The notes under the pieces were generated by a model. The model searched no databases, was not told where the DNA came from, and worked only from the letters and a program-made list of their open reading frames with translations. A stretch of 64,000 bases of DNA from a bacterium. GTDB lineage: Bacteria; UBP6; UBA1177. This document shows positions 1,830 through 62,362 of this stretch, piece after piece. Made by a program: the position numbers and the translations under genes. The stretch is from contig JAFQZM010000013.1 of NCBI GenBank assembly GCA_017405875.1, positions 1,709 to 65,708 of the forward strand, in the 5' to 3' direction. Position 1 is the stretch's first letter. Each line of letters opens with the position of its first letter.

Positions 1830-1874
1830 GGCTCCACTGAGGCAGGGGAGCTGCCGCAAAGCGGCTGAGGGGTC
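1830..1874. repeat. Copy (inverted orientation) of the dispersed ~48 bp hairpin repeat family (CCTCTCAG..CAGCTCCCCT..GGGGAGCC type)
   Basis: ggctccactgaggcaggggagctgccgcaaagcggctgaggggtc matches the family consensus seen at 26956-27003 and 27449-27538. It lies between the pepD stop and the guaA start. Confidence 0.5.
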
Positions 1875-1898
1875 TTGGTAAGTTATTTGGAGGTTTTC

Positions 1899-3431
1899 AT
1901 GGATAAGATTCTCATTCTCGATTTCGGTTCGCAGTATAATCAGCTCATCGCAAGAAGAATAAGGGAGATGAATGTTTACTGCGAGCTTAAGCCGTTTGAT
2001 GTAACACTTGATTTTATTAAGGAATTTAACCCTGCAGGTATAATTTTCTCAGGAGGTCCCTCATCTGTAAACGATGAAGGTTCGCCCGATGTTGACCCTA
2101 AGATTTTCGAGCTCGGAATCCCGATACTCGGCATCTGCTACGGAATGCAGCTCACTTCATCTCGCCTCGGCGGAAAACTGAGCAGCGGGAAAAGCCGCGA
2201 ATACGGAAGAGCTTACATCGAAAACCTCGCACCGGATTCACCTTTTTTCAAGGGGATTTCGCCTAAAACACAGGTCTGGATGAGCCACAGCGACTATGTT
2301 TCCGAGATTCCGCAGGGATTCTACCCGATCGCAAAGACAGACACTATTCCCTTTGCAGCAATAGGAAACAACGAGAAAAAAATCTACGCCGTTCAGTTCC
2401 ATCCTGAAGTAAACCACTCTCTCGAAGGGCGCAAAATGCTTTCGAATTTCCTTTTCGAAGTCTGCGGAGCAAAGGCTGAGTGGAAAATGGAAAACTACAT
2501 AAAGATCGCTACTGAAAACCTCAAAAACACCATTCAGGATAAAAAAGTGGTCCTCGGTCTTTCGGGCGGAGTCGATTCGTCGGTAACTGCGGCGCTTTTA
2601 GCCAAAGCGATAGGCAAAAATCTCACCGCGATATTCGTTGACAACGGCCTTCTGCGCAAAAACGAGCGCAAAGAGGTCGAAGCAAACTTCAAGGACATGC
2701 TCAACCTCATCGTAGTTGACGCCCGTGACGAATTTTTGACCAAACTCGCAGGTGTCACCGAGCCCGAAAAGAAAAGAAAGATCATCGGAAACACTTTCAT
2801 CGAAGTTTTCGAGCGCGAAGCAAACAAGATAAAAGACGCGGATTTCCTGGCGCAGGGAACGATTTATCCCGACGTAATCGAAAGTTCCGTCAACAAAAAA
2901 GGTGCTTCGACCACGATAAAAAGCCACCACAATGTCGGCGGACTTCCCGAAAACATGAAACTGAAACTCGTCGAACCGCTTAGAGACCTCTTTAAAGACG
3001 AAGTGCGCGAACTCGGGCTCAAACTCGGACTTCCAGAAAAGCTCATCAAGCGCCACCCCTTCCCCGGACCGGGTCTTGCTGTCAGAATTTTGGGCGAAGT
3101 CACGGGTGAAAAGTGCGACATACTCAAGGAAGCCGACCACATTTTCATCGAGGAAATCAGAAACGCGGGGCTTTACGACGAGATTTCGCAGGCATTCGTC
3201 GTGCTCCTTCCCGTCAAAACCGTAGGCGTCATGGGCGACTGCCGCACTTATGAATACGTCGTAGCGCTGCGCGCTGTCAAGACGGACGACTTCATGACAG
3301 CCGACTGGTTCGAGTTCGATCCGAAATTCCTCAAAAAAGTCAGTTCGCGTATCATCAACGAAGTCAAAAGAATAAACCGCGTCGTCATGGATATCAGCTC
3401 CAAACCGCCGGCAACTATCGAGTGGGAATGA
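1899..3431 (+). CDS. guaA: GMP synthase (glutamine-hydrolysing), GATase + ATP-pyrophosphatase domains
   Basis: [23 protein letters not shown] start, [10 protein letters not shown]-loop and a C-terminus typical of GuaA. GGAGG RBS 5 nt upstream of the ATG at 1899; the ORF-track start at 1875 is probably upstream of the real start. Confidence 0.95.
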
Positions 3432-3901
3432 AGAAAACAGAAAAAACCAATGTCATGCGTGTTCTGGAGAGCAAAAAAATCTCTTACACCGCGCATGAAT
3501 ACGAGCCCGACGCCACTTTGACAGGCGTTCAGATCGCCGCGATCTTAGGCGAAGACACGTCCAATGTTTTCAAAACGCTCGTCACCCAGGGAAAAAGCGG
3601 CCAGCACTATGTTTTTGTAATTCCCGTCCACGCCGAGCTTGACCTCAAAAAAGCGGCGAAAGCATCAGGTGAAAAATCGATCGAAATGATAAAACAGAAA
3701 GAGCTTCTTCCGCTCACCGGATATGTCCACGGCGGCTGTTCGCCGATCGGAATGAAAAAACAGTTCCCGACATTCCTGCACATAACCGCGGAAAATCTCG
3801 AAAAAATCTATGTCAGCGCAGGGAAAGTCGGCTTTCAGGTCGAGCTTTCACCGGTTGATCTCATCAATGCGGCGGGATGCGTTTTGGCTGATATCGTGTA
3901 G
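3428..3901 (+). CDS. ybaK: YbaK/ProX-family aminoacyl-tRNA (Cys-tRNAPro) deacylase
   Basis: ~158 aa with YbaK-like sequence ([11 protein letters not shown]). ATGA overlap with the guaA stop. Confidence 0.8.
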
Positions 3902-3911
3902 ACATTCAACT

Positions 3912-4068: not shown

Positions 4069-5646
4069 ATGATCACGGGTGAACTTAAAAACAAAATCGA
4101 CAGTCTTTGGGAAATTTTCTGGACGGGCGGGCTCACGAATCCGCTTGATGTCATCGAGCAGATGACCTATCTGATGTTTATCCACGATCTTGACGAGACT
4201 GACAATCTCCGTGCGAAAGAGGCTGCGATGCTGGGCTTGCCTTATGAGAGCATTTTTGCCAAGGAGGTGCATGCCGGCGAGCGCACTGTTGACGGAAGTA
4301 TGCTCAAGTGGAGCGCTTTCCACGATTTTCCGGCTGCGAAGATGTATTCCACGGTGCAGGAATGGGTTTTCCCGTTCATCAAAAACCTGCACGGCGACAA
4401 GGAAAGTGCCTATTCAAAATATATGGGCGACGCTATTTTCAAGGTGCCGACTCCTCTCATGCTTGATAAGATCGTGACGGCGATGGACGGTATCTACGAG
4501 CAGATGGCACAGCTCAAGACCACGGACACACGCGGCGATGTCTATGAGTATCTCCTTTCCAAAATCGCGACTGCCGGTGTAAACGGGCAGTTCCGCACTC
4601 CGCGCCACATTATCCGGATGATGGTCGAACTTATGGATCCCAAGGCTGACGAGATCGTCTGCGACCCTGCCTGCGGCACATCGGGCTTTCTTGTTGCTGT
4701 CAGCGATTACCTCAAGGAGAGGCGCAAAGAGGAGGTTTTCTTCAACCGTCAGAACAAAGACCACTACATGAACTGCATGTTCCACGGTTTTGATATGGAC
4801 CGCACGATGCTCCGTATCGGCGCGATGAACATGATGACGCACGGTGTTGACAATCCTTTCATCGAATACCGCGACAGTCTTTCCGACCAGAATCCAGACC
4901 GCGACAAATATTCCCTTATTCTCGCGAATCCCCCTTTCAAAGGGAGTCTGGACGCGGATATCGTCTCGACCGATCTGCTTAAAGTCTGCAAAACCAAAAA
5001 GACGGAACTTCTCTTTTTAACACTTTTCCTGCGTATGCTCAAAGTGGGCGGACGCTGTGCATGCATCGTTCCCGACGGCGTTCTTTTCGGGTCTTCGACT
5101 GCGCACAAAGCCATCCGCAGTGAACTTATTGAAAACAACCGTCTTGAAGCGGTTATTTCGATGCCCTCAGGCGTGTTCAAACCGTATGCTGGTGTTTCGA
5201 CTGCGATCCTCATCTTCACCAAAACAGGGCACGGCGGCACCGACAAAGTCTGGTTCTACGACATGAAAGCTGACGGATACAGCCTTGATGACAAACGCAG
5301 TCCCGTCAAAGAAAACGATATTCCGGATATAATTCAGAAGTTTACCCTCTCAGTCGCTTCGCGCCAGCTCTCCCAAAGGGCGAGCCAAGAACTTGCCTCC
5401 CACTCAGGGGGAGGTGTCGCCGCAGAAAGCGGTGACGGAGAGGGCGACCGCACCTCGCAATCCTTCTTCGTTCCGAAAGATGAAATCGTCGCCAACGACT
5501 ACGACCTTTCCATCAACAAATACAAACAAACGGAATATGTGGCGGTAGAATACCCGCCCACAAGCGAAATCATGGCAAAAATCGATGAACTCGAAAGCGA
5601 GATCCAGACAGAACTTGCAGAGTTGAAGAAGATGATTGGAGAATAG
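4069..5646 (+). CDS. hsdM: Type I restriction-modification system, N6-adenine DNA methyltransferase subunit M
   Basis: 525 aa with an HsdM N-domain, AdoMet-binding region and the NPPF catalytic motif (LILANPPFKGS). RBS GGAG upstream. Carries an in-frame 40-codon repeat insertion (see 5344-5452). Confidence 0.95.
   Translation: MITGELKNKIDSLWEIFWTGGLTNPLDVIEQMTYLMFIHDLDETDNLRAKEAAMLGLPYESIFAKEVHAGERTVDGSMLKWSAFHDFPAAKMYSTVQEWVFPFIKNLHGDKESAYSKYMGDAIFKVPTPLMLDKIVTAMDGIYEQMAQLKTTDTRGDVYEYLLSKIATAGVNGQFRTPRHIIRMMVELMDPKADEIVCDPACGTSGFLVAVSDYLKERRKEEVFFNRQNKDHYMNCMFHGFDMDRTMLRIGAMNMMTHGVDNPFIEYRDSLSDQNPDRDKYSLILANPPFKGSLDADIVSTDLLKVCKTKKTELLFLTLFLRMLKVGGRCACIVPDGVLFGSSTAHKAIRSELIENNRLEAVISMPSGVFKPYAGVSTAILIFTKTGHGGTDKVWFYDMKADGYSLDDKRSPVKENDIPDIIQKFTLSVASRQLSQRASQELASHSGGGVAAESGDGEGDRTSQSFFVPKDEIVANDYDLSINKYKQTEYVAVEYPPTSEIMAKIDELESEIQTELAELKKMIGE
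5344..5452. repeat. Inverted pair of the ~48 bp hairpin repeat family, inserted in-frame within hsdM
   Basis: ccctctcagtcgcttcgcgccagctctcccaaagggcgagccaag followed by its imperfect reverse complement. Encodes TLSVASRQLSQRASQELASHSGGGVAAESGDGEGDRTSQS inside HsdM without breaking the frame. Confidence 0.6.
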
Positions 5647-5648: not shown

Positions 5649-7046
5649 ATGGAAAATCAGAATATTGAATACAAGCAGTCTTGGCGTGACGAATATCTCA
5701 AATGGGTCTGCGCCTTTGCAAATACAGACGGAGGCAGGCTTTATATCGGTGTAAAGGATGACGGCACTGTCTGCGGCGTGGATGATGCACACAAACTGAG
5801 CGAAGATATTCCGAATAAAATCCGTAATTCCATGGGTCTGATCTGCGCTGTCAATCTGCTTTCCGAGAACGGTCTTGATTATTTTGAAATCGTTATCGAA
5901 AAATATCCGTTTCCTGTAAGTTATCACGGCAGATATTACAAGCGCACAGGCTCTACGATTCAGGAAGTAAGCGGTATCGAGCTGGATAAAATGATTCTGG
6001 GAGTCCAGGGCCGCACATGGGATTCGGTTCCGGTTCCGCATATTTCGGTTGCAGATCTGGAAAATGACGCGATCAGACTTTTCAAGAAAAAGGCTAAAGA
6101 ATCGGGTCGTCTTGATGACGAGGCTTTAGATGTGACAAACGAAACTCTCATTCAGAATCTGCACATTACGGAAGGTCACTACTTGACCCGTGCCTGTATG
6201 CTTGCGTTCCATCCCGACCCTGAAAGATGGGTAACAGGCGCATATATCAAAGTCGCCTATTTTGAAAATGATGCAGACATTCTCTATCAGGATGAAATTC
6301 ACGGCCCGCTGATTCTTCAGGTCGAAAAAACAATGGAGCTGATTTATACAAAGTATATGAAAGCTCTCATTTCCTATGATGACCTCTACAGAAAGGAAAC
6401 CTTTTTCTTCCCGAAATCGGCGTTTCGTGAGCTGCTTCTGAATGCCGTGATCCACAAAGATTATCTTTCCACCACGCCGATTCAGATCCGTATTTACAAA
6501 GACAAAATCCGTCTCTGGAACGACGGAGCGCTTCCCAAAGAAGTTCCGGTCGAGGATTTGTTTAAGGAACACGTTTCAAAACCGTGCAATCCGAACCTTG
6601 CGAATGTCTTCTTCAAATGCGGCATGATTGAAAGCTGGGCTCGCGGCTTCAACAAAATTACAAGATACTGCGAAGAGGAAAACGCAAAACTACCGGTAAT
6701 CGACCTTTCTCTCGGCGGTGTAACTGCCCGCTGCTATGCGTCGGATGTCTATCTGGCACTGATGAATGAGTATGAAAATGCAGAAAAGTTCACAGAAAAT
6801 GACCAGAAAACTGTGGAAAAGACAGAAAAAGTGCCCAAAAGGTGCCCAAAAAGTGCCCAAAAGACATATCTTGCTATTGTAAAAAATCCCAACGCAACTA
6901 TCGAAGAATTAAGCAAAGAACTTGGGATATCTGAACGAGCTGTAAAAAAACATCAAAAATTACTCAAGGATGCAAATTTGATAACACGTCTGGAAGGAAG
7001 AAAATCTGGTTATTGGGAGATTGTGCAGGGGGAAGAGAATGAGTAA
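5649..7046 (+). CDS. AlbA_2/Schlafen-like putative DNA-binding domain protein with a C-terminal HATPase_c_4-like region and a winged-HTH (RecG-like transcriptional regulator family commonly embedded in Type I RM loci)
   Basis: N-terminus EYKQSWRDEYLKWVCAFANTDGGRLYIGVKDDGTVCGV is the AlbA_2 'divergent AAA' signature. C-terminal HTH (IEELSKELGISERAVKKHQKLL). Sits between hsdM and hsdS. Contains an in-frame 11 bp triplet repeat near its 3' end. Confidence 0.75.
   Translation: MENQNIEYKQSWRDEYLKWVCAFANTDGGRLYIGVKDDGTVCGVDDAHKLSEDIPNKIRNSMGLICAVNLLSENGLDYFEIVIEKYPFPVSYHGRYYKRTGSTIQEVSGIELDKMILGVQGRTWDSVPVPHISVADLENDAIRLFKKKAKESGRLDDEALDVTNETLIQNLHITEGHYLTRACMLAFHPDPERWVTGAYIKVAYFENDADILYQDEIHGPLILQVEKTMELIYTKYMKALISYDDLYRKETFFFPKSAFRELLLNAVIHKDYLSTTPIQIRIYKDKIRLWNDGALPKEVPVEDLFKEHVSKPCNPNLANVFFKCGMIESWARGFNKITRYCEEENAKLPVIDLSLGGVTARCYASDVYLALMNEYENAEKFTENDQKTVEKTEKVPKRCPKSAQKTYLAIVKNPNATIEELSKELGISERAVKKHQKLLKDANLITRLEGRKSGYWEIVQGEENE
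6781..6862. repeat. Short-period motif array (AGTTCACAGAAAA, ACTGTGGAAAAG, 3x GTGCCCAAAAR) inside the 3' part of the AlbA_2-like CDS
   Basis: Read directly; same motif repertoire as the arrays at 7058-7280 and 10978-11200. Translated in-frame as KTVEKTEKVPKRCPKSAQK. Confidence 0.6.
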
Positions 7047-7057
7047 AAAAATGTCCG

Positions 7058-7280
7058 AAAAAACTGTGGAGAAGAACTGTGGAGAAAAACAGAAAACTGT
7101 GGAGAAAACTAGGGAGAAAATCGGACTGAAGGTCACCAAAAAGGTCACCGAAAAGGTCACTATAAAAACTACCCAGAAAATAAAAAGTGGCCAAAAAAGT
7201 GGCCTGAAAACGCTAAAAAGTGGCCAGAAAAACGGCCTAAAAAGTTCGCAGAAAGGTTCACAGAAAAGTGGACAGAAAAT
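7058..7280. repeat. Array of ~12 bp units of form [variable 6-mer]+(A)GAAAA, each 6-mer repeated 2-3x in tandem (ACTGTGGAG, ACTAGGGAG, GGTCACC x3, ACTACCCAG, AGTGGCC x3, GTTCACAG, AGTGGAC)
   Basis: Read directly, between the AlbA_2 gene end and the hsdS start. ORF 7021-7290 (K-rich tetrapeptide repeats KTVE/KVTK/KSGQ) is its translation. Confidence 0.7.
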
Positions 7281-7296
7281 TGCGGGGTGACGAGAG

Positions 7297-8439
7297 ATGA
7301 AAACGGTAAGACTTGGAGATATATGCGATATTGTTTCTGGCGGAACCCCATCGCGGTCAAAGCCAGAATTTTGGCAGGATGGTACTATTCCTTGGATTAA
7401 GATCGGAAACATAAGGGGAAAATATGTATCGAAAGCAGATGAATACATTACAAAGGCTGGTTTGGATGCTTCTTCTGCAAAGATGCTGCCCAAAGGAACA
7501 ATTCTCTATACTATCTTTGCGACGCTGGGAGAGGTCTGTATTCTGGACATTGAAGCTTGCACAAATCAAGCTATTGCTGGCATTTCAATGCGAGAGTCAT
7601 CAGGAACTAAATCTGACTATTTATACTATTATCTAAAATCAAAAAAAAGCTATGTTAATGGAATTGGTCGTGGTGTTGCCCAAAACAACATTAACATGTC
7701 AATGCTACGTGATTTTAGAATACCATTACCAACAATTGAGCAACAAGATAAAATTGTTTCTGTCCTTGACAGAATATCCTCAATAATAGCACTACGTCGC
7801 CAGCAGCTCACCGCCCTCGATGAGCTCGTCAAAGCAAGGTTTGTGGAGATGTTTGGGGATGGGAAATATGATTTGAAGTCGGTTGAAGAATTGTGTTCTG
7901 AAATAGTAGACTGCCCACACACAACGCCTAAATATGATGGGGAATTGAAAAATCCTGCTATCAGAACTTCAGAAATAAAAAAGGGTTATATTGCATGGGA
8001 ATCTATGAAGTTTGTTTCTGATGATGAATATGAAGAAAGAATTGCCAGACTTCGCCCAGAAGCTGGAGATATCGTATATGGACGAGAAGGAACATTTGGA
8101 AATGCAGCAATACTTCCTGCAGGATATAAATTTTGTTTAGGACAGAGAGTTATGCTACTTAGACCAAATTATAAAAAAACTTCTTCCGAATATTTACTTC
8201 ATGCCGTTATCTCAGATGATGTTTACAAACAGGCCTTGGATAAAAATAATGCTTCTACTGTGGCACATGTAAATGTGAAAGATGTAAAGCAGTTTAAAGT
8301 ACCTTTGCCACCATTAGATTTACAGAAACGATTTGCTGATTTCGTTTCTCAGGTTGACAAAACTAAAGCAAACATTCAAAAATCCCTTGAAAAATCGCAG
8401 CTTTTGTTTGATAGTTTGATGCAGGAATATTTTGGGTAG
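7297..8439 (+). CDS. hsdS: Type I restriction-modification system specificity subunit S (two target-recognition domains)
   Basis: 380 aa with duplicated TRD architecture and conserved central/C-terminal HsdS repeats (LPPLDLQKRFADFV..). Position between hsdM and hsdR. Confidence 0.9.
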   Translation: MKTVRLGDICDIVSGGTPSRSKPEFWQDGTIPWIKIGNIRGKYVSKADEYITKAGLDASSAKMLPKGTILYTIFATLGEVCILDIEACTNQAIAGISMRESSGTKSDYLYYYLKSKKSYVNGIGRGVAQNNINMSMLRDFRIPLPTIEQQDKIVSVLDRISSIIALRRQQLTALDELVKARFVEMFGDGKYDLKSVEELCSEIVDCPHTTPKYDGELKNPAIRTSEIKKGYIAWESMKFVSDDEYEERIARLRPEAGDIVYGREGTFGNAAILPAGYKFCLGQRVMLLRPNYKKTSSEYLLHAVISDDVYKQALDKNNASTVAHVNVKDVKQFKVPLPPLDLQKRFADFVSQVDKTKANIQKSLEKSQLLFDSLMQEYFG

Positions 8440-8448
8440 GAGGGAAAA

Positions 8449-9828
8449 ATGAACAGCATTGATAAAATACAAGAACTTTTTAAGCAATTATCTGAGAATC
8501 GTGACAAATTATCTGTCATTCTGCCTCAGTTATACCCGATAGCATTAGAGCAAAAAGACTTCGTCGGCTTCTGTTTGCTATATCTATGGGGAACACCGTT
8601 GGGTACATGCAACGAAGCGAATCAGTTATATTTTCAAGATGCTACTAACATGATGCGTTTAGCAGGAATAAGTGAAGAAGACGCTACGAAGATCGAAGCA
8701 ACAGCTGCGAAACAATATTTGTCAATGAGAGACATAAACAAAGATAATGTCCCGAAAGATAAGATAAAAATATGGTCTGCACGAGAACTTGAAGATTTCC
8801 TTCAGCGTTGCGATGTGCAAATTGCCGACTTGAAAGTTCCGGACGGATTAAATCCACTTGCTTCTTATCATATGGAGCAGAGGATTAACTATCAAAAATT
8901 ATCAATCCGTTCAAGCAAAACACAGGCTGAAAAGCAGTATGCTATTTTACATCAGTTAATAACCTCAAAACTTGCTGAGTATCAGACAAAATTATCACAA
9001 ATGGAAGAAATAGGAACAACGCAGGAGAACAACATGACACCATATGAGAAATTAAGGAAATTACGCGACGAAATAGATGAGTTGATTGATAAACAGATGA
9101 CATATTCATTGCCTGAATTCAAAAACTGGCATAAAGAACTCGGATTATTTTTGTCAGAAAAATACGGCACACAAAGCAAGCAATATAAGAATTTTATCGG
9201 GCGGAGTTTTGCACCAAGTCTTCCGCATACTTCAGCACAAGATTATATTGATTCTTGCAAGCGTGGTTTGGAAATAACTCGAACCGAATTATCAGCATAC
9301 TTGGATGACATGAAAGGAGAAACTACGGAATTAGCAATAAATATCCCTAAAGAAAAAGGAGAAATAAGCATGGGAAAAGAAACAAAGGACAGAAAAAAAG
9401 TTTTTATTGTTCACGGGCATGATGAAGCAAAAAGACGGGAATTAAAAGAATTCCTAAAAGACAAACTTAAATTAGATCCTATTGTGTTATCTGACCAATT
9501 GCCCGAAAAAACACTGATTGATAAATTCGAAAAATATGCAAAGCAGTGTTCATACGCTTTTGTTATATATACTCCTGATGATCAAGTCTCCAATCAAGAA
9601 CAAAAATATTTTCAAGCTCGTCCGAATGTTATTTTTGAGTTGGGTTGGTTCTATGCACATTTTGCGGGTTCTCCTAATATTTGTATACTGAAGCAAGAGA
9701 CGGATGCTAAAGATAACTTGATTTTTTCAGATCTACAAGGAGTCGAATATCTTACTTTCAGAAAAGATATTGAGGAAAAATTTTATAAAATTCAAGAAAT
9801 ACTTAAGGCAAGAGGAATTATTAACTAA
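8449..9828 (+). CDS. Two-domain protein: ~300 aa alpha-helical N-terminal domain of unknown function plus a C-terminal TIR-like nucleotide-binding domain (COG4271 / PF10137, CAP12-PycTIR type)
   Basis: C-terminus KKVFIVHGHDEAKRRELKEFLKDKLKLDPIVL...YAFVIYTPDDQ...QARPNVIFELGWFYAHFAGSPNICILKQ...SDLQGVEYLTF follows the PF10137 consensus as I recall it (VFIVHGhD...vvLlTpDD...RaRqNVifElGyF...vEiPSDlsGv.Y), including the conserved Glu. Excellent RBS AGGAGGGAAAA. Very AT-rich. 10 bp after hsdS. Confidence 0.7.
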   Translation: MNSIDKIQELFKQLSENRDKLSVILPQLYPIALEQKDFVGFCLLYLWGTPLGTCNEANQLYFQDATNMMRLAGISEEDATKIEATAAKQYLSMRDINKDNVPKDKIKIWSARELEDFLQRCDVQIADLKVPDGLNPLASYHMEQRINYQKLSIRSSKTQAEKQYAILHQLITSKLAEYQTKLSQMEEIGTTQENNMTPYEKLRKLRDEIDELIDKQMTYSLPEFKNWHKELGLFLSEKYGTQSKQYKNFIGRSFAPSLPHTSAQDYIDSCKRGLEITRTELSAYLDDMKGETTELAINIPKEKGEISMGKETKDRKKVFIVHGHDEAKRRELKEFLKDKLKLDPIVLSDQLPEKTLIDKFEKYAKQCSYAFVIYTPDDQVSNQEQKYFQARPNVIFELGWFYAHFAGSPNICILKQETDAKDNLIFSDLQGVEYLTFRKDIEEKFYKIQEILKARGIIN

Positions 9829-9858
9829 GACGAGGGACGCAATTGACAGGAGAACAGA

Positions 9859-10857
9859 ATGGGTAAAATCGTTGAAATAGCTAAAATATTAGTTTCACCT
9901 ACTGAAAAATTAATTGATGTAATTCGAGCTGCAATTGGTAAAGCCTATGAACCAAGATATGAGAAAAGGATGAGTGATGCTAAAGCATATGAAATTACAA
10001 CTGTTGCAAACGCATTAAGAGATTCAAGCGACATTCCTATCACATATAGTAAAGAAGGCTTGACAATGAGCACAACAGATTTTGATGAGTTCAAAAAACG
10101 AACTCAAAGCCGTTTGGCATATCAAGAGCTGACAAAACAAAAAAATATAGAGTCTGTAGCTGATTACGCCTACGCACAATTAGAAGGTGCGGCAGATGTT
10201 CCTAATGATCCTGTTGATCAAGATTGGATAAATAGATTCTTTAATTCTGTTGCTGATGTCAGCAATGAAGATATGCAACTTTTGTGGGGAAAAATTCTTG
10301 CAGGTGAAGTTAAACAACCAGGGAGCTTTTCATTGCGTACTTTGGAAACTTTAAGAAATATGAGCAAAAAAGATGCTGAACTTTTTGTTAAAATTGCTCC
10401 ATTTTTAGTTTCTATCACTTCTGACTCTCAAAAAGTACTTTCTTCAGATGACGAATTATGTGAAAAGTATGGTTTGTCTTATGGAAAGATTATTATGATC
10501 TTGGATGAATGTGGATTGATTAATTCTTCAGCATTTCTGACTTTCAATCTTTCGCTTACTAAAGAACAAGAAATTCCTGTGTATACTCTCGAAAGAGTTG
10601 CTTTGCTGAGAGGACTAAACGATAACAGTGTAAAAATTTCATTTGGGGTCCACACTTTAACAAAAGTAGGATTGGAATTGTTTAATCTTATTGATGCAAA
10701 ACCAAACAATGAATATTTTAGTGATTTCATAAAGAACATAGAATCAGCTAACAAAGGAAAAGTTGTTGCAACTATTCATAGTGTAAATACGATACAAAAT
10801 GGTGGCATAAATTATAAAAAGGAACCTATCGAAATTATTAAAAGTGATAATAAATAA
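9859..10857 (+). CDS. DUF2806-like protein (uncharacterised; assignment from recalled motif)
   Basis: 332 aa; central DQDWINRFFNSVADVSNEDMQLLWGKILAGEVKQPGSFSLRTLETLRNMSKKDAELF resembles the DUF2806 (PF10987) core as I remember it. RBS AGGAGAACAGA. 30 bp after the TIR-like gene, same strand. Confidence 0.5.
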   Translation: MGKIVEIAKILVSPTEKLIDVIRAAIGKAYEPRYEKRMSDAKAYEITTVANALRDSSDIPITYSKEGLTMSTTDFDEFKKRTQSRLAYQELTKQKNIESVADYAYAQLEGAADVPNDPVDQDWINRFFNSVADVSNEDMQLLWGKILAGEVKQPGSFSLRTLETLRNMSKKDAELFVKIAPFLVSITSDSQKVLSSDDELCEKYGLSYGKIIMILDECGLINSSAFLTFNLSLTKEQEIPVYTLERVALLRGLNDNSVKISFGVHTLTKVGLELFNLIDAKPNNEYFSDFIKNIESANKGKVVATIHSVNTIQNGGINYKKEPIEIIKSDNK

Positions 10858-10977: not shown

Positions 10978-11200
10978 CAAAAAACTACCAAGACAAATGC
11001 GAAAAAACTAGGGTAGAAAGCGAAAAAACTAGGGTGGAAAATGAGAAAACTAGGGTAAAAAACTGTGGAGAAAACCAAGAAACTGTGGAGAAAAACTGTG
11101 GAGAAAACTAAAACAATTACCCAAAAAACTACCCAAAAAAGTTCACAGAAAAGTACAGTGAAAGGTACAGTGAAAAGTACGGTGAAAAGTTCGGAAAAAA
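10978..11200. repeat. Second ~12 bp motif array (ACTAGGGT x3, ACTGTGGAG x3, ACTACCCA x2, GTTCACAGAAAA, GTACAGTG x2, GTACGGTG, GTTCGG)
   Basis: Read directly. Shares ACTGTGGAGAAAA, ACTAGGG, ACTACCCA and GTTCACAGAAAA units with the 7058-7280 array, so the two arrays bracket hsdS plus the two embedded genes. ORF 11065-11388 is its translation. Confidence 0.7.
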
Positions 11201-11226
11201 TAATGGAACTCGTTAAAATTGTAGAA

Positions 11227-11272
11227 CCCCTCTCAGTCGCTTTGCGACAGCTCTCCCTAAGGGCGAGCCAAG
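11227..11272. repeat. Copy of the ~48 bp hairpin repeat family
   Basis: cccctctcagtcgctttgcgacagctctccctaagggcgagccaag. Confidence 0.6.
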
Positions 11273-11364
11273 AAAGAGGAGCGAGTCTTAGTAGTTACTA
11301 CCAAGACAAATGTGGAAAAACGAATTTAAAAAAATGCGGTAATTTTGGGGTGTTAGAAATAAAA

Positions 11365-11557
11365 GTGAACTTTAAAAGTGTACTTTAAGTAGCCTTTAAG
11401 TGTACTTTAAAAGTAGACTTTAAGTAGACTTTAAGTAGCCTTTAAGTGTACTTTAAAAGTATACTTTAAGTAGCCTGAGTAGACTTTGAGTAGACTTTGA
11501 GTAGACTTTGAAGTAGACTTTGAGTAGACTTTAAGTGGTCTTTAAGTAGACTTTGAA
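11365..11557. repeat. Tandem array of ~17 copies of an 11 bp unit GTAGACTTTRA (variants GTGTACTTTAAAA, GTAGCCTTTAA, GTGGTCTTTAA)
   Basis: Read directly; period 11 (occasionally 12-13). Ends ~35 bp before the hsdR start codon. Confidence 0.8.
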
Positions 11558-14397: not shown

Positions 14398-14559
14398 CCC
14401 TCTCAGCCAGCGTTGCGAAGAAACCCTCTCAGTCGCTTCGCGCCAGCTTCCCCTGAGTGGGAGCCATGTGGGTGAGAGGCAAGTCTTGGCTCGCCCTTTG
14501 GGAGAGCTGTCTGCACAGCAGACTGAGAGGGCAAAGTGTCACGCAGTGACGGAGAGGGC
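14398..14559. terminator. Cluster of 3-4 copies of the hairpin repeat family in inverted orientation immediately after the hsdR stop; likely transcription terminator / island boundary
   Basis: ccctctcagtcgcttcgcgccagcttcccctgagtgggagcca ... cttggctcgccctttgggagagctgtctgcacagcagactgagaggg form a long inverted repeat, plus partial flanking copies. Confidence 0.5.
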
Positions 14560-14571
14560 ATCAGCCGATTT

Positions 14572-26759: not shown

Positions 26760-26955
26760 GTATGATTTCTATCCCTTCAAAGCCGTGAGTGATGCGATAT
26801 AGATACCGTCAGAAGGTAATTCTTTCAAAAAAGCGCCGTTCTTCAAAGTTTTTGGCAACCTCACCCTCAATCCCTCTCCAATGTGGCGAGGGAAAATGCG
26901 GTGCCACTTTTTCCCGGTATTTTCGGATGGTTTTTGCCACTTTTTCCAGGTAAAT

Positions 26956-35368: not shown

Positions 35369-35378
35369 GTATTTAATT

Positions 35379-38313: not shown

Positions 38314-38314
38314 T

Positions 38315-47226: not shown

Positions 47227-47310
47227 TTAACGGTTTTCCAAGCTTTTTTTTGAAAAATTTAACGGTTTTCCATGAATTTTTCGGAAAATTTTAACGGTTT
47301 TCCAAGATTT
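47227..47310. repeat. Three phased direct repeats of TTTAACGGTTTTCCA(A/T)G, 32-33 bp centre-to-centre, plus a partial inverted half-site ACCGTT
   Basis: Read directly in the 146 bp gap between the polA stop and the AAA+/DUF4143 gene start. Confidence 0.5.
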
Positions 47311-47317
47311 TTACCGT

Positions 47318-52638: not shown

Positions 52639-52914
52639 ATGATAGTGCTGAAAACTCCGCAGGAAATGGCGGTTGATGCCGCAAAACGCTTCAAGGAAAT
52701 GAGAAAAGCGAAAAAAATAACGATAAAAAAGTTGAGCGAAAATAGCGGCGTTCCCTATTCCACAATCAGACGTTTTGAAAGCAGCGGCGAAATATCGTTT
52801 CTTTCACTCGTTAAAATCGTTTCGACTGTCGGTGAAGATGAAGAGATCACAAACCTGTTTGCCAAGCGCATACCAGCATCAATAGAGGAGATCATCCGTG
52901 AAAACCGCAGATAG
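52639..52914 (+). CDS. hipB: HipB-like XRE HTH antitoxin (second hip locus)
   Basis: KKITIKKLSENSGVPYSTIRRFESSGEISFLSLVKIV; overlaps the downstream hipA start. Confidence 0.6.
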   Translation: MIVLKTPQEMAVDAAKRFKEMRKAKKITIKKLSENSGVPYSTIRRFESSGEISFLSLVKIVSTVGEDEEITNLFAKRIPASIEEIIRENRR

Positions 52915-54034
52915 AATTGAAGTTTTTTTGAACGGGAAAAAAGTCGGAACAATGGTTCCCTACCAGAAACGGCTGACCGCTTTTGAATATTCCGAGGAAT
53001 GGCTTCGGGACGGATTTTCCATAAGTCCTTTTTCGCTTCCGCTGCAGGCAGGTGTAAAAATCGCAAAGGTCGATCCCTTCGACGGAATTTTCGGGATATT
53101 CGCCGATTCGCTTCCTGACGGCTGGGGCAAATTGTTGGTCGACCGGATGCTCAGAAAAGCGGGAGAACGCCCTGAAGAAATCGATCCTTTTTCCCGCCTT
53201 TCCATTGTCGGAACATCAGGAACGGGAGCATTGGAATACAAACCTGTTTACAACTTGAAAACAAATGAACATATTGACGATCTCGACCGCCTTGCCGAAG
53301 AATGCCGGAAAATCCTGCAAACAGAAGATTCGGGCGACCTTGACACGCTTTTTGCGATGGGCGGTTCTTCCGGCGGAGCGAGACCGAAAGTGACAATTCG
53401 GCTGAACGGAGAAGAGTGGATCGTGAAATTCCCGTCGTCGGGCGATCCGGCAGATATCGGTTTTATGGAATACGAATACAACCTCTGTGCAAGAGACTGC
53501 GGCATTGATATTCCGGGAATCAGGCTTTTTCCGTCTGATTTATGTCCAGGATATTTCGGTTGCATTCGCTTTGACAGAGTGAAAACCCCGCTCGGTGAAA
53601 AAAAAATCCACACCGCTTCCGTTTCTGCGCTGCTCGAAACTTCCCACAGGATCCCTGCACTTGATTACTGCTCGCTGCTCTCTCTGACCTGGCAGCTCAC
53701 GAAGCGTGAAGATGAAGTTGAAAAAATGTTCACTCTCATGTGTTTCAATGTTTTTGCGCACAACAGAGACGACCACTCAAACAATTTTTCATTTGTTTAT
53801 GACGGCGGCTGGCGGCTCTCTCCAGCTTATGACCTGACTTATTCGAACTCTGTCGGCGGTGAGCATGCGACGACCGTTGCAGGAGAAGGAAAAAATCCCA
53901 CAATAAAGGATATTCTTGCTGTCGCGAAAAAAATCGGCATGAAAGAATCCCGTGCAAAGCAAATAGAGGAAAAGGTTAGTGAAACCGTGAATGAACGACT
54001 GTTTGGAATTATGAAAAAATCGAGGCTTTCATGA
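52898..54034 (+). CDS. hipA: HipA-family Ser/Thr kinase toxin (full length, with N-subdomain)
   Basis: N-terminus [19 protein letters not shown]...SLPLQAG...[10 protein letters not shown]; catalytic core [34 protein letters not shown]. Confidence 0.85.
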
Positions 54035-59966: not shown

Positions 59967-61721
59967 CTAATCGCCCGCAAGATGCTTGAGCTGCTCCTTG
60001 AGAGCGTTGAATTTTTCGGCCTCTTTTTTCATTTTTTCGACCTCTGCCGAAAGCTCTGCAGCTTTTTTCTCAGCCGCAGCAAGTTTCTCCGCAGATTCTG
60101 CCGCACTCTTTTTGAGAGCTTCCAACTCGGTGTGAGCCGTTTCTAAAGCCTCTTTCGTTTCCATGAGTTTGTCGATCTGCTCGTTGAGAGTTTTGATCTT
60201 GTCGAGTTTTTCGGCATTTTTGCTTTTCAAAGACTCGTTTTCTTTAACAAGTTCATCGTTCTGGTCGGTGATTTCAGCCGCTTTCGCTATAGCTTCGCCG
60301 AGTTCCTCGATTTCGCTTTTCTGAGTCGAGCAAACTTTTTCAAGTTCCGCTTTTTCACTGCGGACTTTTTCAAATTCATCGGCGATGATCGTCAGATTCG
60401 ATATTGTATCCTTGAGTTCAGCAGCCTCGGACTCGGATTCTTTGATAAGAGCTTCCTTTTCTTCGACAAGGCGGGATTTTTCGGCTGCCTCGTCTGTTGC
60501 TTTTTTCAGCGAAGTTTCAAGATTTTTCTTCTCAGCCGCAACCGCATCTGCCGCTTTCTTAAGATCAGCTATTTCGGAATCATTCTTTTTTACTTTGGCA
60601 GTTTCTGCTTCGAGAGCCTTCTTCAATTCTTCGGCTTCCTTTTTGTGCGCCTCAACCAGCTTTTCTTTTTCGGAAGCAGCGGATTTTTTGGTTTCTTCCA
60701 GTGATTTTGCAAGTTTATCTTTTTCCGTTGCAACTTCTTTGGTTTCCGCCTCAGCCTTTTTGACTCTCTCTTTCATCTCTTTGTTGTAAACCGAAAGAAC
60801 ATCGTTCTGATCTTTGACTTCGTTGATTTTCTTTTTCAGATCGTCAACGTCTTTCTGGCTGAACGAATTTTTGAGCGTTGCTTCAAGATCCTGAACCGAC
60901 TTTTCAAGAGTAGCGTTTTTCTTTTCGGCTTCTTCAAGTTTTGCGGCGGTTGCAGTTTTCTCTTCCTCAACTTTTTTCATGTCGGAGGCAAGTTTTTCCT
61001 TTTCTGCCGAGGCTGCGTCAAGCTGTTTTTTGAGTTCGTCGCACTCTTTTGCCGTATTTCCGGCAGCGGCAAGCTTTTCTTCGAGATCGGCAACCTGCTC
61101 TTCAAGATTTTTTATGCGAAGTCCTTTCTGTACAATGGCGTCTTTGAGTTCGCCCGTTTCCTCTTCTATTTTTGAAGCATCGGAAAGATTTTTTTCAAGA
61201 GTCGCGATTTTTTCAGCCTGAACGCGGAGTTTTTCTTCACTTTCCGAAACCTGTTTGTTCATCAAATCGATTTTTTCTGCATCCTCGGCAAGTTTTCCTT
61301 TCAAAGCTGAAAGTTCTGCCGCGCTTTCTTCGGCTGCCAAAGCGTCAAGGAAGGGATAAATCGCATTCATCGAAGCAAGGATTGTCTCGTCGTCGGTCGG
61401 AATTTTGAGATAATAATCAGCGTGGTAGTCGAATTCTCTGTGTCTGTCGAAAGTCGCCTCGTCCGCATTGCTCGAAATAAGCAGGATCGGGCGTGATGCG
61501 TAAAGGCTCAGAGCCCTGATTTTTTTGCAGAGCATAAAACCTTGCATTCCCGGATTTTCAGCCCTGATTATAAAGGCGTTGATTTTCGTCCTGTCGAGAA
61601 TTTCCTGAACCTTTGTTTCGGAATCCGCAACAAAAACGGAAAAACCGAATTGTTCAAAAAGAGCCGAAAGATTTCCGGCATTTGCTGAATCGGATTCGTA
61701 AATAAGAAGGTTTTTGCTCAT
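59967..61721 (-). CDS. Response-regulator receiver domain fused to a ~450 aa coiled-coil
   Basis: N-terminal REC (MSKNLLIYESDSANAGNLSALFEQFGFSVFVADS...ILLISS), then E/K/A/L-rich heptad-like sequence. Confidence 0.65.
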   Translation of the reverse strand: MSKNLLIYESDSANAGNLSALFEQFGFSVFVADSETKVQEILDRTKINAFIIRAENPGMQGFMLCKKIRALSLYASRPILLISSNADEATFDRHREFDYHADYYLKIPTDDETILASMNAIYPFLDALAAEESAAELSALKGKLAEDAEKIDLMNKQVSESEEKLRVQAEKIATLEKNLSDASKIEEETGELKDAIVQKGLRIKNLEEQVADLEEKLAAAGNTAKECDELKKQLDAASAEKEKLASDMKKVEEEKTATAAKLEEAEKKNATLEKSVQDLEATLKNSFSQKDVDDLKKKINEVKDQNDVLSVYNKEMKERVKKAEAETKEVATEKDKLAKSLEETKKSAASEKEKLVEAHKKEAEELKKALEAETAKVKKNDSEIADLKKAADAVAAEKKNLETSLKKATDEAAEKSRLVEEKEALIKESESEAAELKDTISNLTIIADEFEKVRSEKAELEKVCSTQKSEIEELGEAIAKAAEITDQNDELVKENESLKSKNAEKLDKIKTLNEQIDKLMETKEALETAHTELEALKKSAAESAEKLAAAEKKAAELSAEVEKMKKEAEKFNALKEQLKHLAGD

Positions 61722-61735
61722 GATAAATCCCCTGA

Positions 61736-62188
61736 TTATTTGTTTTTAAAAGCCGAAAGTTTTTTTTCTATCGCAAAAATCGAACCGACACCGTTATCTT
61801 TCAAAATTTTCCAAAAAGCACTTCCGCCTAAAGAAATGAGTTTCGGATAACCGTGAAGAGTAAGTTTCAAAAAATTCGCGTAAATTACCAAATCCACCTT
61901 TTCTTTTTCGCCCGTAAGCAGTTTTGCAGCAAAAACCAAAAAATCTTCAACACTTAAATTTGAAGAGTATTCAGAAAACAGTTTAGTGAAAACTTCTTCC
62001 TGCATACTTACGACAAAATCAGGTTTTTCAGAACCGGGTTCACGGAACGAAATCCCGCACTTTTCACGTGAAACAATTGCCTTCCCGCCGCATTCTACCG
62101 AGACTCCGAAGGATGCTCCCTTTGAAAGAGAATTTAAGATTTTCATTACCGCGTCATTCTTTCTGACTGCTTCTTCTATAGAAATCAT
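61736..62188 (-). CDS. Hypothetical protein (possible SCP2-like fold)
   Basis: 150 aa; weak resemblance only. Confidence 0.3.
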   Translation of the reverse strand: MISIEEAVRKNDAVMKILNSLSKGASFGVSVECGGKAIVSREKCGISFREPGSEKPDFVVSMQEEVFTKLFSEYSSNLSVEDFLVFAAKLLTGEKEKVDLVIYANFLKLTLHGYPKLISLGGSAFWKILKDNGVGSIFAIEKKLSAFKNK

Positions 62189-62289
62189 GCACTGAACCTC
62201 TCAGCCAAAGAGCGCGTTTTTTTATCATAAGCTCTTTTCTTTTGCAAGAATTTAAAATAATATGCGCCGGGTTTTGCGGCAAAGCCGTC

Positions 62290-62362
62290 AGGGGCGTGTG
62301 TGAAAAACCAACACACTCCACAGTCTGCTAATGCAGCCAACCCCCTAACTTAGGGGAGCAGT
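62290..62362. repeat. Hairpin repeats upstream of the GT2 gene: GTGTGTG-loop-CACACAC hairpin plus a diverged copy of the dispersed repeat (..CAGTCTGCTAATGCAGCCAACCCCCTAACTTAGGGGAGCAG)
   Basis: Read directly. Confidence 0.35.

Follow-up and report, generated by a model that had tools for sequence, protein, structure and literature searches.

Linkage of a dispersed two-hairpin repeat family to a small DUF559 nuclease gene, with translated copies in hsdM and hsdR

The REP/BIME and REPIN/RAYT repeats consist of short, imperfect palindromes that are rich in GC and carry a conserved, unpaired head. They form clusters of alternating orientation and inverted doublets without target duplication, and in REP/RAYT systems genome-dispersed repeats flank a small, apparently single-copy gene. 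Inheritance of REP/RAYT systems has been reported to be mostly vertical, and the systems to be lineage-specific (bioRxiv 10.1101/2022.05.22.493013). We analyzed repeats that share all of these structural features in a 64,000-nucleotide stretch of contig JAFQZM010000013.1 (the window), whose host is an unclassified non-firmicute lineage. Unlike REP/RAYT, the gene linked to them encodes a PD-(D/E)XK Vsr-fold nuclease (DUF559) and not an HUH/Y1 transposase, the unit has two hairpins, and one sequence family spans many Clostridia families as well as an unrelated lineage. The E. coli repeat BoxC (56 bp, about 22–32 copies) has an identical hairpin core, CTCTCCC-AAA-GGGCGAG, down to the T.C mismatch that type A units show in the window. 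A C-rich head is placed 5' of this core, and BoxC is directly linked to a DUF559 gene, ycjD. However, the BoxC head is CCCTCACCC-TAA, the variable hairpin 1 and the CAAG tail of the window units are missing, the arms are longer (CCCTCTCCCC/GGGGCGAGGGG), and host phylum and copy number differ. BoxC is a relative or convergent counterpart of the same system and not the same family.

Other mobile repeats resemble the window units in part. Ogata and colleagues are said to have described in 2000 that Rickettsia palindromic elements (RPE) insert in frame into coding genes and are translated while the protein is kept. Palindromic repeats in the window are likewise in frame within coding genes and translated, but RPE are 100–150 bp long, AT-rich, Rickettsia-specific and not known to have a linked enzyme. 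Like Neisseria Correia elements (CREE/NEMIS) and other MITEs, the units are small, non-autonomous, intergenic and sometimes intragenic, and may carry expression signals. Terminal inverted repeats of 26 bp bound the Correia elements, which also contain an IHF site and duplicate a TA target, whereas the window unit consists of a head and two hairpins with no target duplication seen. Subterminal hairpins and the lack of target duplication recall IS200/IS605 single-strand transposition, as does the conserved head, which behaves as a fixed left-flank target with solo heads marking unit-less sites; in contrast to IS200/IS605, a Y1 transposase is absent and the head is 9 nt long compared with a target of 4–5 nt. 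VSR, DUF559 and DUF2726 have been placed in one nuclease fold group (PMC3424549), which is shared by Vsr repair nucleases and by the Vsr-like homing endonucleases of the I-Bth0305I family (free-standing or intron-borne). Those enzymes are not known to be tied to dispersed hairpin repeats, whereas here a 126-aa stand-alone DUF559 domain is embedded between units.

The repeat unit and its copies in the window

The ~48-bp unit comprises a head (CCCTCTCAG), a variable hairpin 1, hairpin 2 (CTCTCCC-loop-GGGMGAG) and a CAAG tail. The copies found are as follows.

1825–1876, minus strand: full unit, subtype C, pepD-guaA spacer (nhmmer E 5e-10; nearest to the DUF559-flanking copies, 73–77% identical)
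5341–5393, plus strand: full unit, type A, inside HsdM, frame +3 as LSVASRQLSQRASQ (nhmmer; missing from head-only allele L001)
5389–5446, minus strand: full unit, type B (CACCTCCCCC...GGGAGG), inside HsdM as LASHSGGGVAAESGDGEG (nhmmer, translation)
11224–11274, plus strand: full unit, type A, intergenic, upstream of an 11-bp tandem array and hsdR (nhmmer E 1e-15)
11625–11677, plus strand: full unit, type A, HsdR N-terminus, frame +1 as PSQSAAQPALPNGEP (nhmmer; missing from the 913-aa orthologue L206)
14394–14417, plus strand: solo head CCCTCTCAGCC and short remnant, immediately 3' of the hsdR stop (nhmmer)
14420–14470, plus strand: full unit, type A variant (nhmmer E 5e-14)
14483–14535, minus strand: full unit, type A, inverted pair with 14420–14470 (nhmmer E 5e-15)
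14537–14562, minus strand: partial unit, type B head and hairpin 1 (CCCTCTCCGTCACTGCGTGAC) (nhmmer)
26953–27009, plus strand: full unit, subtype C, DUF559 left flank, starting with AATGACCTCTC (nhmmer)
27446–27481, unstranded: hairpin of head and inverted head (GACCTCTCCGTCAC-GTA-GTGACTGAGAGGT), DUF559 3' end (sequence)
27479–27531, minus strand: full unit, subtype C, DUF559 right flank, inverted relative to 26953–27009 (nhmmer; 83% identical to the left copy)
27529–27540, minus strand: extra terminal head (CTGAGAGGTC) (nhmmer)
62318–62362, plus strand: degenerate unit, subtype C-like, without intact head (by eye; 67–72% identical to other copies; below nhmmer significance)

The sequence-only reading had described a dispersed, REP/MITE-like hairpin repeat family whose unit contained a single internal stem. 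The family is real, since full units reach nhmmer E values of 5e-9 to 1e-15 and chance is excluded, and its REP/MITE-like character is supported, but the unit has two hairpins, the presumed N14 spacer being itself a palindrome. With a profile built from the copies, nine full units were identified in the window, which also contains four or more partial units. To reach the 11 or more copies counted earlier, the partial units are needed. The head with at most one mismatch was present 20 times in the window versus 6.7 expected, a number reached in none of 100 shuffles, and the hairpin-2 pattern six times versus 0.34 expected. Hairpin 1 is free in sequence with its pairing kept, and hairpin 2 is conserved. 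Across 137 units there were 62 different hairpin-1 sequences, almost all palindromes, and the mean MFE was −3.8 kcal/mol compared with −0.9 for shuffles. RNAalifold detected compensatory pairs in hairpin 1 (AU15/GC13/UA2/CG1) as well as in hairpin 2 (GC26/CG8, this pair being broken in no unit), and the loops are TGC or TTC. No target duplication was visible at the insertions. The unit is best read as a member of a large REP/BoxC-like repeat family with two hairpins.

An exact-pattern scan matched at least 120 stretches in gut and rumen genomes, mostly of Clostridia, and units also occur in isolate genomes. The copies in the RM island form their own subtype (87–93% alike), distinct from that at the resident DUF559 gene and the pepD-guaA spacer. 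HsdM is ~80% identical to Lachnospiraceae proteins, whereas the host GuaA is at most ~62% identical to any named taxon. On the simplest reading, the island probably arrived by horizontal transfer with repeats already inside, followed by local expansion and contraction; its type A and B copies would have come with it, and the type C copies would belong to the resident DUF559 cassette. The clustering around the island had earlier been taken to suggest a role in its mobility or expression. That suggestion is unsupported, because the island copies are a separate subtype and were probably imported together with it.

Translated insertions in hsdM and hsdR

Two genes of the RM island carry units within their coding sequence.

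4069–5646, plus strand: hsdM, host gene with an inverted unit pair in the loop preceding the C-terminal FFVPKDEI motif (Pfam N6_Mtase, HsdM_N; orthologue alignments)
11590–14397, plus strand: hsdR, host gene with one unit in codons 13–29 (Pfam ResIII, HSDR_N, EcoEI_R_C)

The units at 5341–5393 and 5389–5446 form an inverted pair with their heads outward. The earlier reading had 40 in-frame codons added to HsdM. The element-derived stretch covers ~36–40 codons, but the gene exceeds its nearest head-only orthologues by only 29 codons (525 versus 496 aa), and the ancestral-type proteins of 500 aa by 25. The hsdR ATG at 11590 is preceded, at a distance of 7 nt, by the ribosome-binding site GGAG, and the conserved motif SEYATRKKYID is located downstream of the unit, which must therefore be translated. 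Most reading frames of the unit are free of stop codons, so that it is tolerated when translated in the variable HsdM loop and at the HsdR N-terminus.

Within 90%-identity clusters, HsdM ranged from 496 to 557 aa and HsdR from 913 aa (zero units) to 1009 aa. HsdM proteins that are 96–98% identical had either 496–497 aa, with the 9-nt head alone at the site, or 525, 535, 537, 545 or 557 aa, with differing unit stacks. Comparison of the DNA of filled, head-only and ancestral sites showed that solo heads mark sites without the rest of the unit. The same solo head is found 3' of the hsdR stop in L206, where synteny breaks, the entire after-hsdR cluster is missing at that site in the related species L068, and L138 contains tandem arrays of units. 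At the same two sites, orthologues of 96–98% identity have no unit, a single unit or several. The hsdM and hsdR copies are thus in-frame, translated insertions, as the sequence-only reading had proposed; they are recent and not native sequence, and the motif recurs in well over 100 other genomes. True internal coding copies were found essentially in HsdM and HsdR alone. The repeat, a non-autonomous DNA element, has preferred sites at which it is gained, lost and stacked.

A DUF559 gene embedded between units

Both the second hairpin and a repeat-flanked gene had been overlooked in the earlier reading.

27090–27473, plus strand: DUF559 (YcjD-like, Vsr-fold PD-(D/E)XK) nuclease gene, 127 aa, proposed repeat partner (Pfam PF04480 E 1e-27; PDB 3HRL E 2e-11)

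This gene is bracketed by inverted units, and gene calls of 13 contigs place the exact protein at the same locus. At loci elsewhere, an inverted head, GAGAGGG, is positioned 7 nt before the DUF559 ATG and resembles a Shine-Dalgarno sequence; in the window, the hairpin at 27446–27481 encodes the final residues and the stop codon. The 11 nt at 27446–27456 (AATGACCTCTC) repeat those at 26953–26963, and the cassette 3' end is joined to its 5' end via this repeat in L215, a single short contig. Among repeat-selected loci, 11 of the 120 matches listed have a DUF559 gene whose ends carry units. In unbiased ORF clustering, DUF559 was the only family, spurious ones aside, whose genes lay at distance 0 from repeats. 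No RAYT, IS200-like, Y1 or other transposase family was enriched near repeats in 836 kb of repeat-selected DNA, and no transposase was found in the window. In the reciprocal test, 80 metagenome loci were picked solely by DUF559 similarity, and 77 of them had units at the gene ends, with a density of 6.23 per kb there versus 0.137 per kb elsewhere. These loci represent at least 25 flank contexts and 12 protein clusters at 90% identity, and their units often provide the ribosome-binding site and stop codon of DUF559. Heads point inward in most Clostridial cassettes (50/80) and outward in the window and L218. A small DUF559 nuclease gene is linked to the repeat family.

Small DUF559 genes of eight distant taxa also lie within C-run/G-run hairpin sequences, as judged by inspection with no matched control. 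Recurrence of the flanking hairpins was shown in four of the eight (E. coli, Neisseria, Sinorhizobium and Deinococcus); similar hairpins flank DUF559, by inspection, in Picosynechococcus, Azospirillum, Sphingomonas and Photobacterium. In E. coli, the stop codon of ycjD resides in a BoxC-like CCCTCTCCC-TGAAA-GAGCGAGGG hairpin with an inverted BoxC copy downstream, and the linked repeat, present at a median of 16 places per genome, was confirmed as BoxC by published sequences (PMC2267715). BoxC was detected in all 5426 E. coli genomes, although a query of ycjD with its flanks reached a coverage of 80% or more in only 3374 of them. At the level of sequence, the linkage of DUF559 to repeats is seen again in other phyla, E. 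coli ycjD with its BoxC repeats being one case.

Possible routes of repeat movement

We somewhat favor a mobile two-hairpin REP/BoxC-like repeat with the DUF559 nuclease as its partner, and infer the enzymology from the observed association. The nuclease would recognize the head and hairpins and nick or cut there, and cutting could drive excision, copying or break-repair-mediated spread and the tandem growth of units. It would be to these repeats what RAYT is to REP/REPIN, but with another enzyme fold. Counting against a partner role, the sole functional data on a DUF559 protein point to Vsr-like mismatch repair (PMC12907096), and the dispersed copies in the window are mostly types A and B, unlike the subtype flanking the resident DUF559 gene. 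Two further observations, the non-uniform cassette arrangement (inward versus outward heads) and the retention of BoxC in E. coli genomes without well-matched ycjD and flanks, also speak against it and suit an alternative that we regard as unlikely, namely that the repeats are moved by an unlinked enzyme (RAYT, IS200/IS605-type Y1 or an IS transposase in trans) or by host recombination alone, with DUF559 a bystander in a favored landing site or a co-traveller. The REP/BIME-like build is consistent with this alternative, as is the CGTC in type B heads, the tag of one REP superfamily that "apparently lacks a dedicated transposase" (PMC3733652). The lack of transposase enrichment near the repeats in the 836 kb of repeat-selected DNA, and of any transposase in the window, argues against it, and a landing site would explain neither the ribosome-binding site and stop codon that units supply to DUF559 nor the recurrent linkage with lineage-specific repeats in Proteobacteria, Deinococcota, Cyanobacteria and Clostridia.

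Less probable still is that the units are mainly structural signals (mRNA 3'-end stabilizers or terminators, translation-initiation modules, or sites for a self-regulating DNA-binding DUF559) that spread slowly by duplication and recombination, the genic copies being neutral by-products. The compensatory changes, the TGC/TTC loops, the Shine-Dalgarno-like sequence and the placement of units between convergent genes, such as after hsdR, all fit such signals. However, palindromes can acquire compensatory changes by template switching without RNA selection, unit orientation relative to flanking genes is inconsistent within the window, T-runs are absent 3' of the hairpins, and Rfam gave zero family matches. 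Moreover, the presence/absence polymorphism and stacking in 96–98% identical alleles, the tandem arrays and the near-identical units across phyla point to active turnover and horizontal spread and not to a conserved regulatory site. There is next to no chance that the segments in hsdM and hsdR are ancient coding sequence of native origin with a mere resemblance to an intergenic motif, or artefacts of metagenome-bin assembly. The window does come from a metagenome-assembled contig and the insertion sites are in naturally variable regions, but orthologue comparisons refute this explanation: near-identical orthologues have no units or different stacks, the exact proteins occur on 7–23 independent contigs, and the same units are found in isolate genomes (Faecalibacterium prausnitzii UT1).

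The I-Bth0305I family provides a precedent for a Vsr-like fold acting as a mobile-DNA endonuclease. The linkage described here points to the DUF559 nuclease as the unrecognized partner enzyme of the repeats.

A polymorphic, horizontally widespread two-hairpin repeat family

The hairpin motif of the sequence-only reading was borne out by the sequence at the positions it had named and by a repeat search of the window, which recovered the family as entry D8 and the inverted pairs I1, I4, I8, I9 and I12. An nhmmer profile made from nine copies and used on the window found nine full units (E 5e-9 to 1e-15), which include two inverted pairs (5341-5446 and 14420-14535), as well as partial head modules.

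Repeat units in the window (full units and head modules from the nhmmer profile)
1825-1876, minus strand: full unit, pepD-guaA spacer
5341-5393, plus strand: full unit, in hsdM
5389-5446, minus strand: full unit, in hsdM
11224-11274, plus strand: full unit
11625-11677, plus strand: full unit, in hsdR
14420-14470, plus strand: full unit
14483-14535, minus strand: full unit
26953-27009, plus strand: full unit, left of the DUF559 gene
27479-27531, minus strand: full unit, right of the DUF559 gene
14394-14417, 14537-14562, 27446-27481 and 27529-27540: partial head modules
~62318-62362: degenerate copy

The head CCCTCTCAG, counted with up to one mismatch, appears 20 times in the window where 6.7 would be expected, and the hairpin-2 pattern 6 times where 0.34 would be; neither count was reached in any shuffle. 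A chance origin of the family is excluded. From all fetched DNA we gathered 441 copies (E<=0.05), of which 283 were near-full-length (E<1e-4) and comprised 221 distinct sequences with the consensus CCCTCTCAG-TCACC-TGC-GGTGA-CAGCTCTCCC-AAA-GGGAGAGC-CAAG. The N14 stretch of the sequence-only reading is a second hairpin (hairpin 1), with 62 sequences among 137 units, almost all of them palindromes; its arms in these units are TCACC/GGTGA, TCGGC/GCCGA, TCAGC/GCTGA, GCGC/GCGC and longer ones, and its mean MFE is -3.8 kcal/mol compared with -0.9 for shuffles. RNAalifold on 34 units found compensatory pairs in both stems: one hairpin-1 pair is AU in 15 units, GC in 13, UA in 2 and CG in 1, and the first hairpin-2 pair is GC in 26 and CG in 8, with none broken. 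Three subtypes are present in the window. Hairpin 2 contains a T.C mismatch in type A (CTCTCCC/GGGCGAG). Type B combines CCTCCCCC/GGGAGG with the head CCCTCTCCGTC, and in type C a loop of 7 nt separates GCTCCCC from GGGGAGC. Units are 45-53 bp long, GC-rich and mostly stop-free, the +1, +3 and -1 frames being open in 130-133 of 143 units. No Rfam family covered them, either at gathering thresholds across the whole window or at E<=1 across 11-15 kb.

An exact-pattern scan with CCCTCTCAGTC-N7-11-CAGCTCTCCC over one genome per species, for which ~1.4 chance matches are expected, matched at least 120 stretches. Clostridia of the gut or rumen made up almost all of the matches listed, namely Faecalibacterium (with F. 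prausnitzii UT1, a complete genome), Oscillospiraceae, Ruminococcaceae, Monoglobus, Christensenellaceae and some Lachnospiraceae; a few matches were outliers, and one was locus L068, from 'Bacterium isolate RGIG7134', a relative of the window organism. The window corresponds to about 1623-65622 of a 230-kb scaffold from a ruminant metagenome. The best named taxa for the window GuaA, at ~62% identity, are Acidobacteria, Nitrospirota and Bacteroidetes, below closer relatives that reach down to 69%, so the host is not a Clostridium-type firmicute. The family is real, polymorphic and horizontally widespread.

Units inside hsdM and hsdR

Genes of the window
368-1801: pepD
1899-3431: guaA
3422-3901: ybaK-like
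4069-5646: hsdM
5649-7046: AlbA_2/Schlafen
7297-8439: hsdS
8449-9828: CAP12-type TIR
9859-10857: DUF2806
11590-14397: hsdR
14572-15804, minus strand: membrane protein
27090-27473: DUF559
27572-28876: wzt-like

The unit pair in HsdM is translated as TLSVASRQLSQRASQELASHSGGGVAAESGDGEGD and the single unit in HsdR as NPSQSAAQPALPNGEPS. The latter must be translated, because no start codon other than one before the unit has a ribosome-binding site (GGAG, 7 nt ahead of it) and because the conserved SEYATRKKYID motif follows the unit. Translation of the units is tolerated in both proteins. Most HsdM homologues are 500 aa long and read ...RFHALDAEEGRERTEQSFFVP at the insertion site, and about a quarter of the best 120 have an extra Ser/Pro/Gly/Ala-rich stretch of ~15-200 aa exactly there. 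For the HsdM and HsdR of the window, we compared the alleles that share their 90%-identity clusters. HsdM alleles of 496-497 aa (EKF-TL-SD-EGRTSQ) or of 525, 535, 537, 545 and 557 aa are 96-98% identical outside the insertion site, and HsdR alleles range in length between 913 aa, with no unit (MTSELSE..TRK), and 1009 aa, with about five. The proposal that the hsdM and hsdR copies are insertions held up in this ortholog alignment: the residues are not common to all orthologues, since near-identical HsdM proteins lack units or carry varied ones, and the motif is widespread rather than unique. Judged from these alleles, the genic copies are recent insertions.

At the DNA level, a 496-aa hsdM allele (locus L001) reads GCC CTC TCA GAT GAA GGC and retains a solo head CCCTCTCAG. 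Loci L204 and L205 have true ancestral-type hsdM sites with no head, although at L205 the native sequence GACGGAGAG nearly matches the inverted head. Downstream of the hsdR stop codon, the related species L068 has nothing, locus L206 has the solo head CCCTCTCAGCC alone before synteny changes, and the window has the L206-type solo head followed by ~160 nt of units. These comparisons indicate that units are gained and lost 3' of the head and stack at the same places without target duplication. Filled and empty sites were sought across all fetched loci, which gave few informative pairs; the target-site duplications raised by the sequence-only reading were seen neither at the window copies nor in comparisons of filled with head-only sites.

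In 120 repeat-bearing loci, open frames of at least 250 codons contain 21% of units compared with 71% of random positions. An internal in-frame scan of these loci returned mostly spurious GC-rich ORFs, and the only real cases were HsdM (again, in locus L067) and HsdR; this sample therefore gives no support to the notion of an element that decorates many proteins. A search of the protein database with concatenated unit translations was uninformative, returning only 42 small domain-less ORFs over repeat clusters. GuaA variants of 540 aa, considered as a coding insertion, proved to be gene calls extended too far at the N-terminus, through the upstream unit. An AlphaFold model of HsdM from a 20-sequence alignment (mean pLDDT 43.6) was too poor to place the insert and was discarded. 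Because the units are stop-free, two sets of database proteins are annotation artefacts: P0223-P0230 (GuaA, 540-542 aa), in which guaA is called 30 codons too long via the upstream unit, and P0181-P0222, 'hypothetical proteins' of 50-120 aa called over repeat clusters.

The Type I RM operon is split at 5649-10857 by defence-type genes (AlbA_2/Schlafen with HTH, CAP12/Pycsar-type TIR, DUF2806) with a GC content of 34-40% compared with 47-50% for hsdM and hsdR, and the RM operons of relatives hold other inserts (AbiH, a second AlbA_2, Fic). Dense short tandem arrays of 11-13-nt period and the form 'AAAA plus 7-8 nt' occupy 6826-7279, which covers the AlbA_2/HTH 3' end and the stretch before hsdS, and 11000-11554, in the DUF2806-hsdR gap. 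Their units are AAAAAGTGCCC, AAAACTGTGGAG, AAGGTCACCAAA, TAAAAAGTGGCC, AAAAGTTCACAG and ACTTTAAGTAG (15.5 copies), and a comparable AGTAGACTTTAAAAGTATACTTT stretch lies upstream of hsdR in L206. The one-helical-turn period suggests phased binding sites or bent DNA. Elsewhere in the window, a low-GC (32-39%) island of paralogous glycosyltransferase-type genes at 29700-41400 adjoins ABC-2/Wzt export genes and contains repeated 300-nt segments of 73-85% identity (31356/37506, 36509/40361, 29746/35379). Two HipA-like kinase genes are found at 43053-43901, without the N-terminal coupling domain, and 52898-54034, and three tandem 32-nt units (TTAACGGTTTTCCAAG...) at 47227-47322 lie directly upstream of the polA start on the minus strand.

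The concentration of units around the RM island had been read as a role in its mobility or expression. An effect on RM expression, assembly or mobility found no support in this analysis, and history explains the clustering best. The island's type A copies are 87-93% alike and distinct from the type C units at the DUF559 gene and in the pepD-guaA spacer, HsdM is ~80% identical to Lachnospiraceae proteins, and L068 carries a DUF559 cassette with type A units immediately upstream of its hsdR. The RM island looks horizontally acquired.

Small DUF559 genes are physically linked to the repeats

The 127-aa product of the window DUF559 gene, which is bracketed by inverted type C units, matched PF04480 with 96.3 bits (cut-off 20.6) and PDB entry 3HRL with E 2e-11. 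The residues D49, E60, D62 and H66 of its D...ExD..H core are invariant in our alignment A2, and DUF559 has been grouped with Vsr and a homing endonuclease (PMC3424549). The protein is a predicted Vsr-fold PD-(D/E)XK nuclease. The window DUF559 sequence was used in tblastn against 120 loci picked only by the repeat, and 11 of them contained homologues with units at the gene ends. In the commonest cassette, the inverted unit ends GACTGAGAGGG, Shine-Dalgarno-like and 7 nt before the ATG, and the gene ends ...PLSHLR-TGA with its stop codon within hairpin 1 of the forward unit. Unbiased ORF clustering of the 120 loci gave DUF559 as the only non-spurious family at a median distance of 0 from the repeats; no RAYT (REP-associated tyrosine transposase) or IS200-like family was near the repeats in these loci or the window, and the 64-kb window has no transposase.

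For the reciprocal test, 80 metagenome loci were chosen by DUF559 similarity alone. Units were present at the gene ends in 77 of them, on both sides in 55, with a density of 6.23 per kb beside DUF559 compared with 0.137 per kb elsewhere in these loci. At least 25 different flank contexts upstream and 37 downstream are represented, and the proteins form 12 clusters at 90% identity. The architecture of the cassette varies, with heads inward in 50 of the 80 loci and outward in the window. In locus L138, the DUF559 gene is preceded by a ~98-nt unit in about five tandem copies (983-1471) and followed by the 48-nt unit in at least three exact tandem copies (1830-1950), which shows local amplification at the cassette ends.

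The only direct repeat, the 11-nt AATGACCTCTC, brackets the left unit and DUF559. In an 866-nt contig (L215; ena ERZ28019071 k141_1475165), window 27398-27456, from the 3' end of the DUF559 gene, is fused to 26953 onward via this 11-nt sequence. Tandem duplication of the 493-bp segment (left unit plus DUF559), or its excision as a circle, would produce such a junction, which comes from one contig. Every other place at which the exact DUF559 protein was found was the same locus. Searches of plasmids and phages for close homologues gave only two 'UNVERIFIED: Bacteriophage sp.' faecal contigs (L217 and L218; MT835749.1 and MT835756.1), with DUF559 homologues 58-62% identical, flanking units and several further unit pairs. 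If these are phage DNA, they could be a vehicle for spread between phyla.

We also inspected small DUF559 genes of eight distant taxa. Escherichia coli K-12 ycjD ends ...RRSPSP-TGA, with its stop codon in the loop of CCCTCTCCC-TGAAA-GAGCGAGGG, and an inverted copy, CCCCTCGCCCCTCTGGGGAGAGGGTTAGGGTGAGGGG, lies downstream. By published sequences, the flanking repeat is BoxC (PMC2267715 supplement); a 65-mer of it occurs at a median of 16 and a maximum of 29 places per E. coli genome. The sapF-fabI site holds ycjD there and eefRABCD in other E. coli phylogroups (PMC12817139), and BoxC persists in E. coli genomes without ycjD. In NC_000913.3 1351040-1351830 (L222), a partial duplicate of the ycjD 3' end and the inverted BoxC copy lie before fabI. 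In Neisseria gonorrhoeae, two direct copies of a unit that occurs at 23-27 places per chromosome flank a homologue of the 3HRL protein. The Sinorhizobium unit occurs at 14 places in its replicon and at 1353 places across 198 Rhizobiaceae records. In Deinococcus, inverted copies abut the DUF559 start and stop codons, and the unit is upstream of DUF559 in four species. Inspection of Picosynechococcus, Azospirillum, Sphingomonas and Photobacterium gave a similar picture, and two of these four carry GGGGAGGGTTAGGGTGGGG, close to BoxC. Small DUF559 genes are tightly, reciprocally and across phyla linked to the repeats, the distant taxa by inspection. In the literature searched we found neither a DUF559/YcjD-repeat link nor a description of this repeat family.

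Likeness to known elements and a candidate enzyme

Like REP/BIME-REPIN sequences, the units are short imperfect palindromes with a conserved unpaired head, dispersed in many copies and arranged in alternating or inverted doublets (5341-5446 and 14420-14535). With regard to the REP tag GTAG/CGTC, type B heads (CTCCGTCAC) contain CGTC, whereas type A heads read CTCAGTC. Unlike REPs, the units have no cognate RAYT (Y1/HUH) beside them in the 120 loci or the window, where DUF559 is the only linked family; the Y1 transposase of IS200/IS605-like peel-and-paste, which uses the hairpin foot as a guide to cleave on the 3' side of a short target, is likewise not linked here. A MITE such as Correia should leave a target-site duplication, which the window units do not show, and as to terminal inverted repeats, the ends of the inverted pairs read CCCTCTCAG...CTGAGAGGG, but a single unit lacks an inverted end. 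In-frame translated insertion into conserved proteins (HsdM, HsdR) recalls the Rickettsia palindromic elements, which are 100-150 bp long and found in Rickettsia; the units here differ in being 45-53 bp, GC-rich and from gut and rumen bacteria. The E. coli BoxC hairpin is CCCTCTCCCC-loop-GGGGCGAGGGG, and its core CTCTCCC-AAA-GGGCGAG is common to the window type A hairpin 2, mismatch included. The BoxC head CCCTCACCC-TAA directly abuts a single hairpin in a unit of ~56 bp, whereas the window unit has the head CCCTCTCAG and a CAAG tail and contains the additional, variable hairpin 1. Catalogues of BoxC and other small dispersed repeats date back to the 1990s, and to our knowledge no mechanism for their origin or spread has been described. 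CGTC-type REPs 'lack a dedicated transposase' (PMC3733652).

We propose that the candidate DUF559 nuclease would act on the head or the hairpins and drive unit turnover, as RAYT does for REPINs, and that the head may serve as a fixed left-flank target. A broader reading, which we consider somewhat more doubtful than probable, is that YcjD-type DUF559 nucleases are the partner enzymes of pan-bacterial, RAYT-independent C-run/G-run hairpin repeats comprising E. coli BoxC, the Clostridial/gut family and the Neisseria, rhizobial, Deinococcus and cyanobacterial units: a nuclease-driven miniature mobile-element system that crosses phyla and writes variable peptide linkers into hsdM and hsdR-type genes.

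The repeat family makes length-polymorphic, low-complexity inserts in Type I RM subunits, misleads gene calling into spurious small ORFs and extended N-termini, and marks break-points of defence islands in gut metagenomes. The link to DUF559 spans gut Clostridia, an unclassified rumen lineage, E. coli K-12, Neisseria, rhizobia and Deinococcus. As a reproducible link, it would give orphan repeats a candidate enzyme and the widespread DUF559 domain a candidate substrate, an idea that is directly testable in E. coli with ycjD and BoxC.
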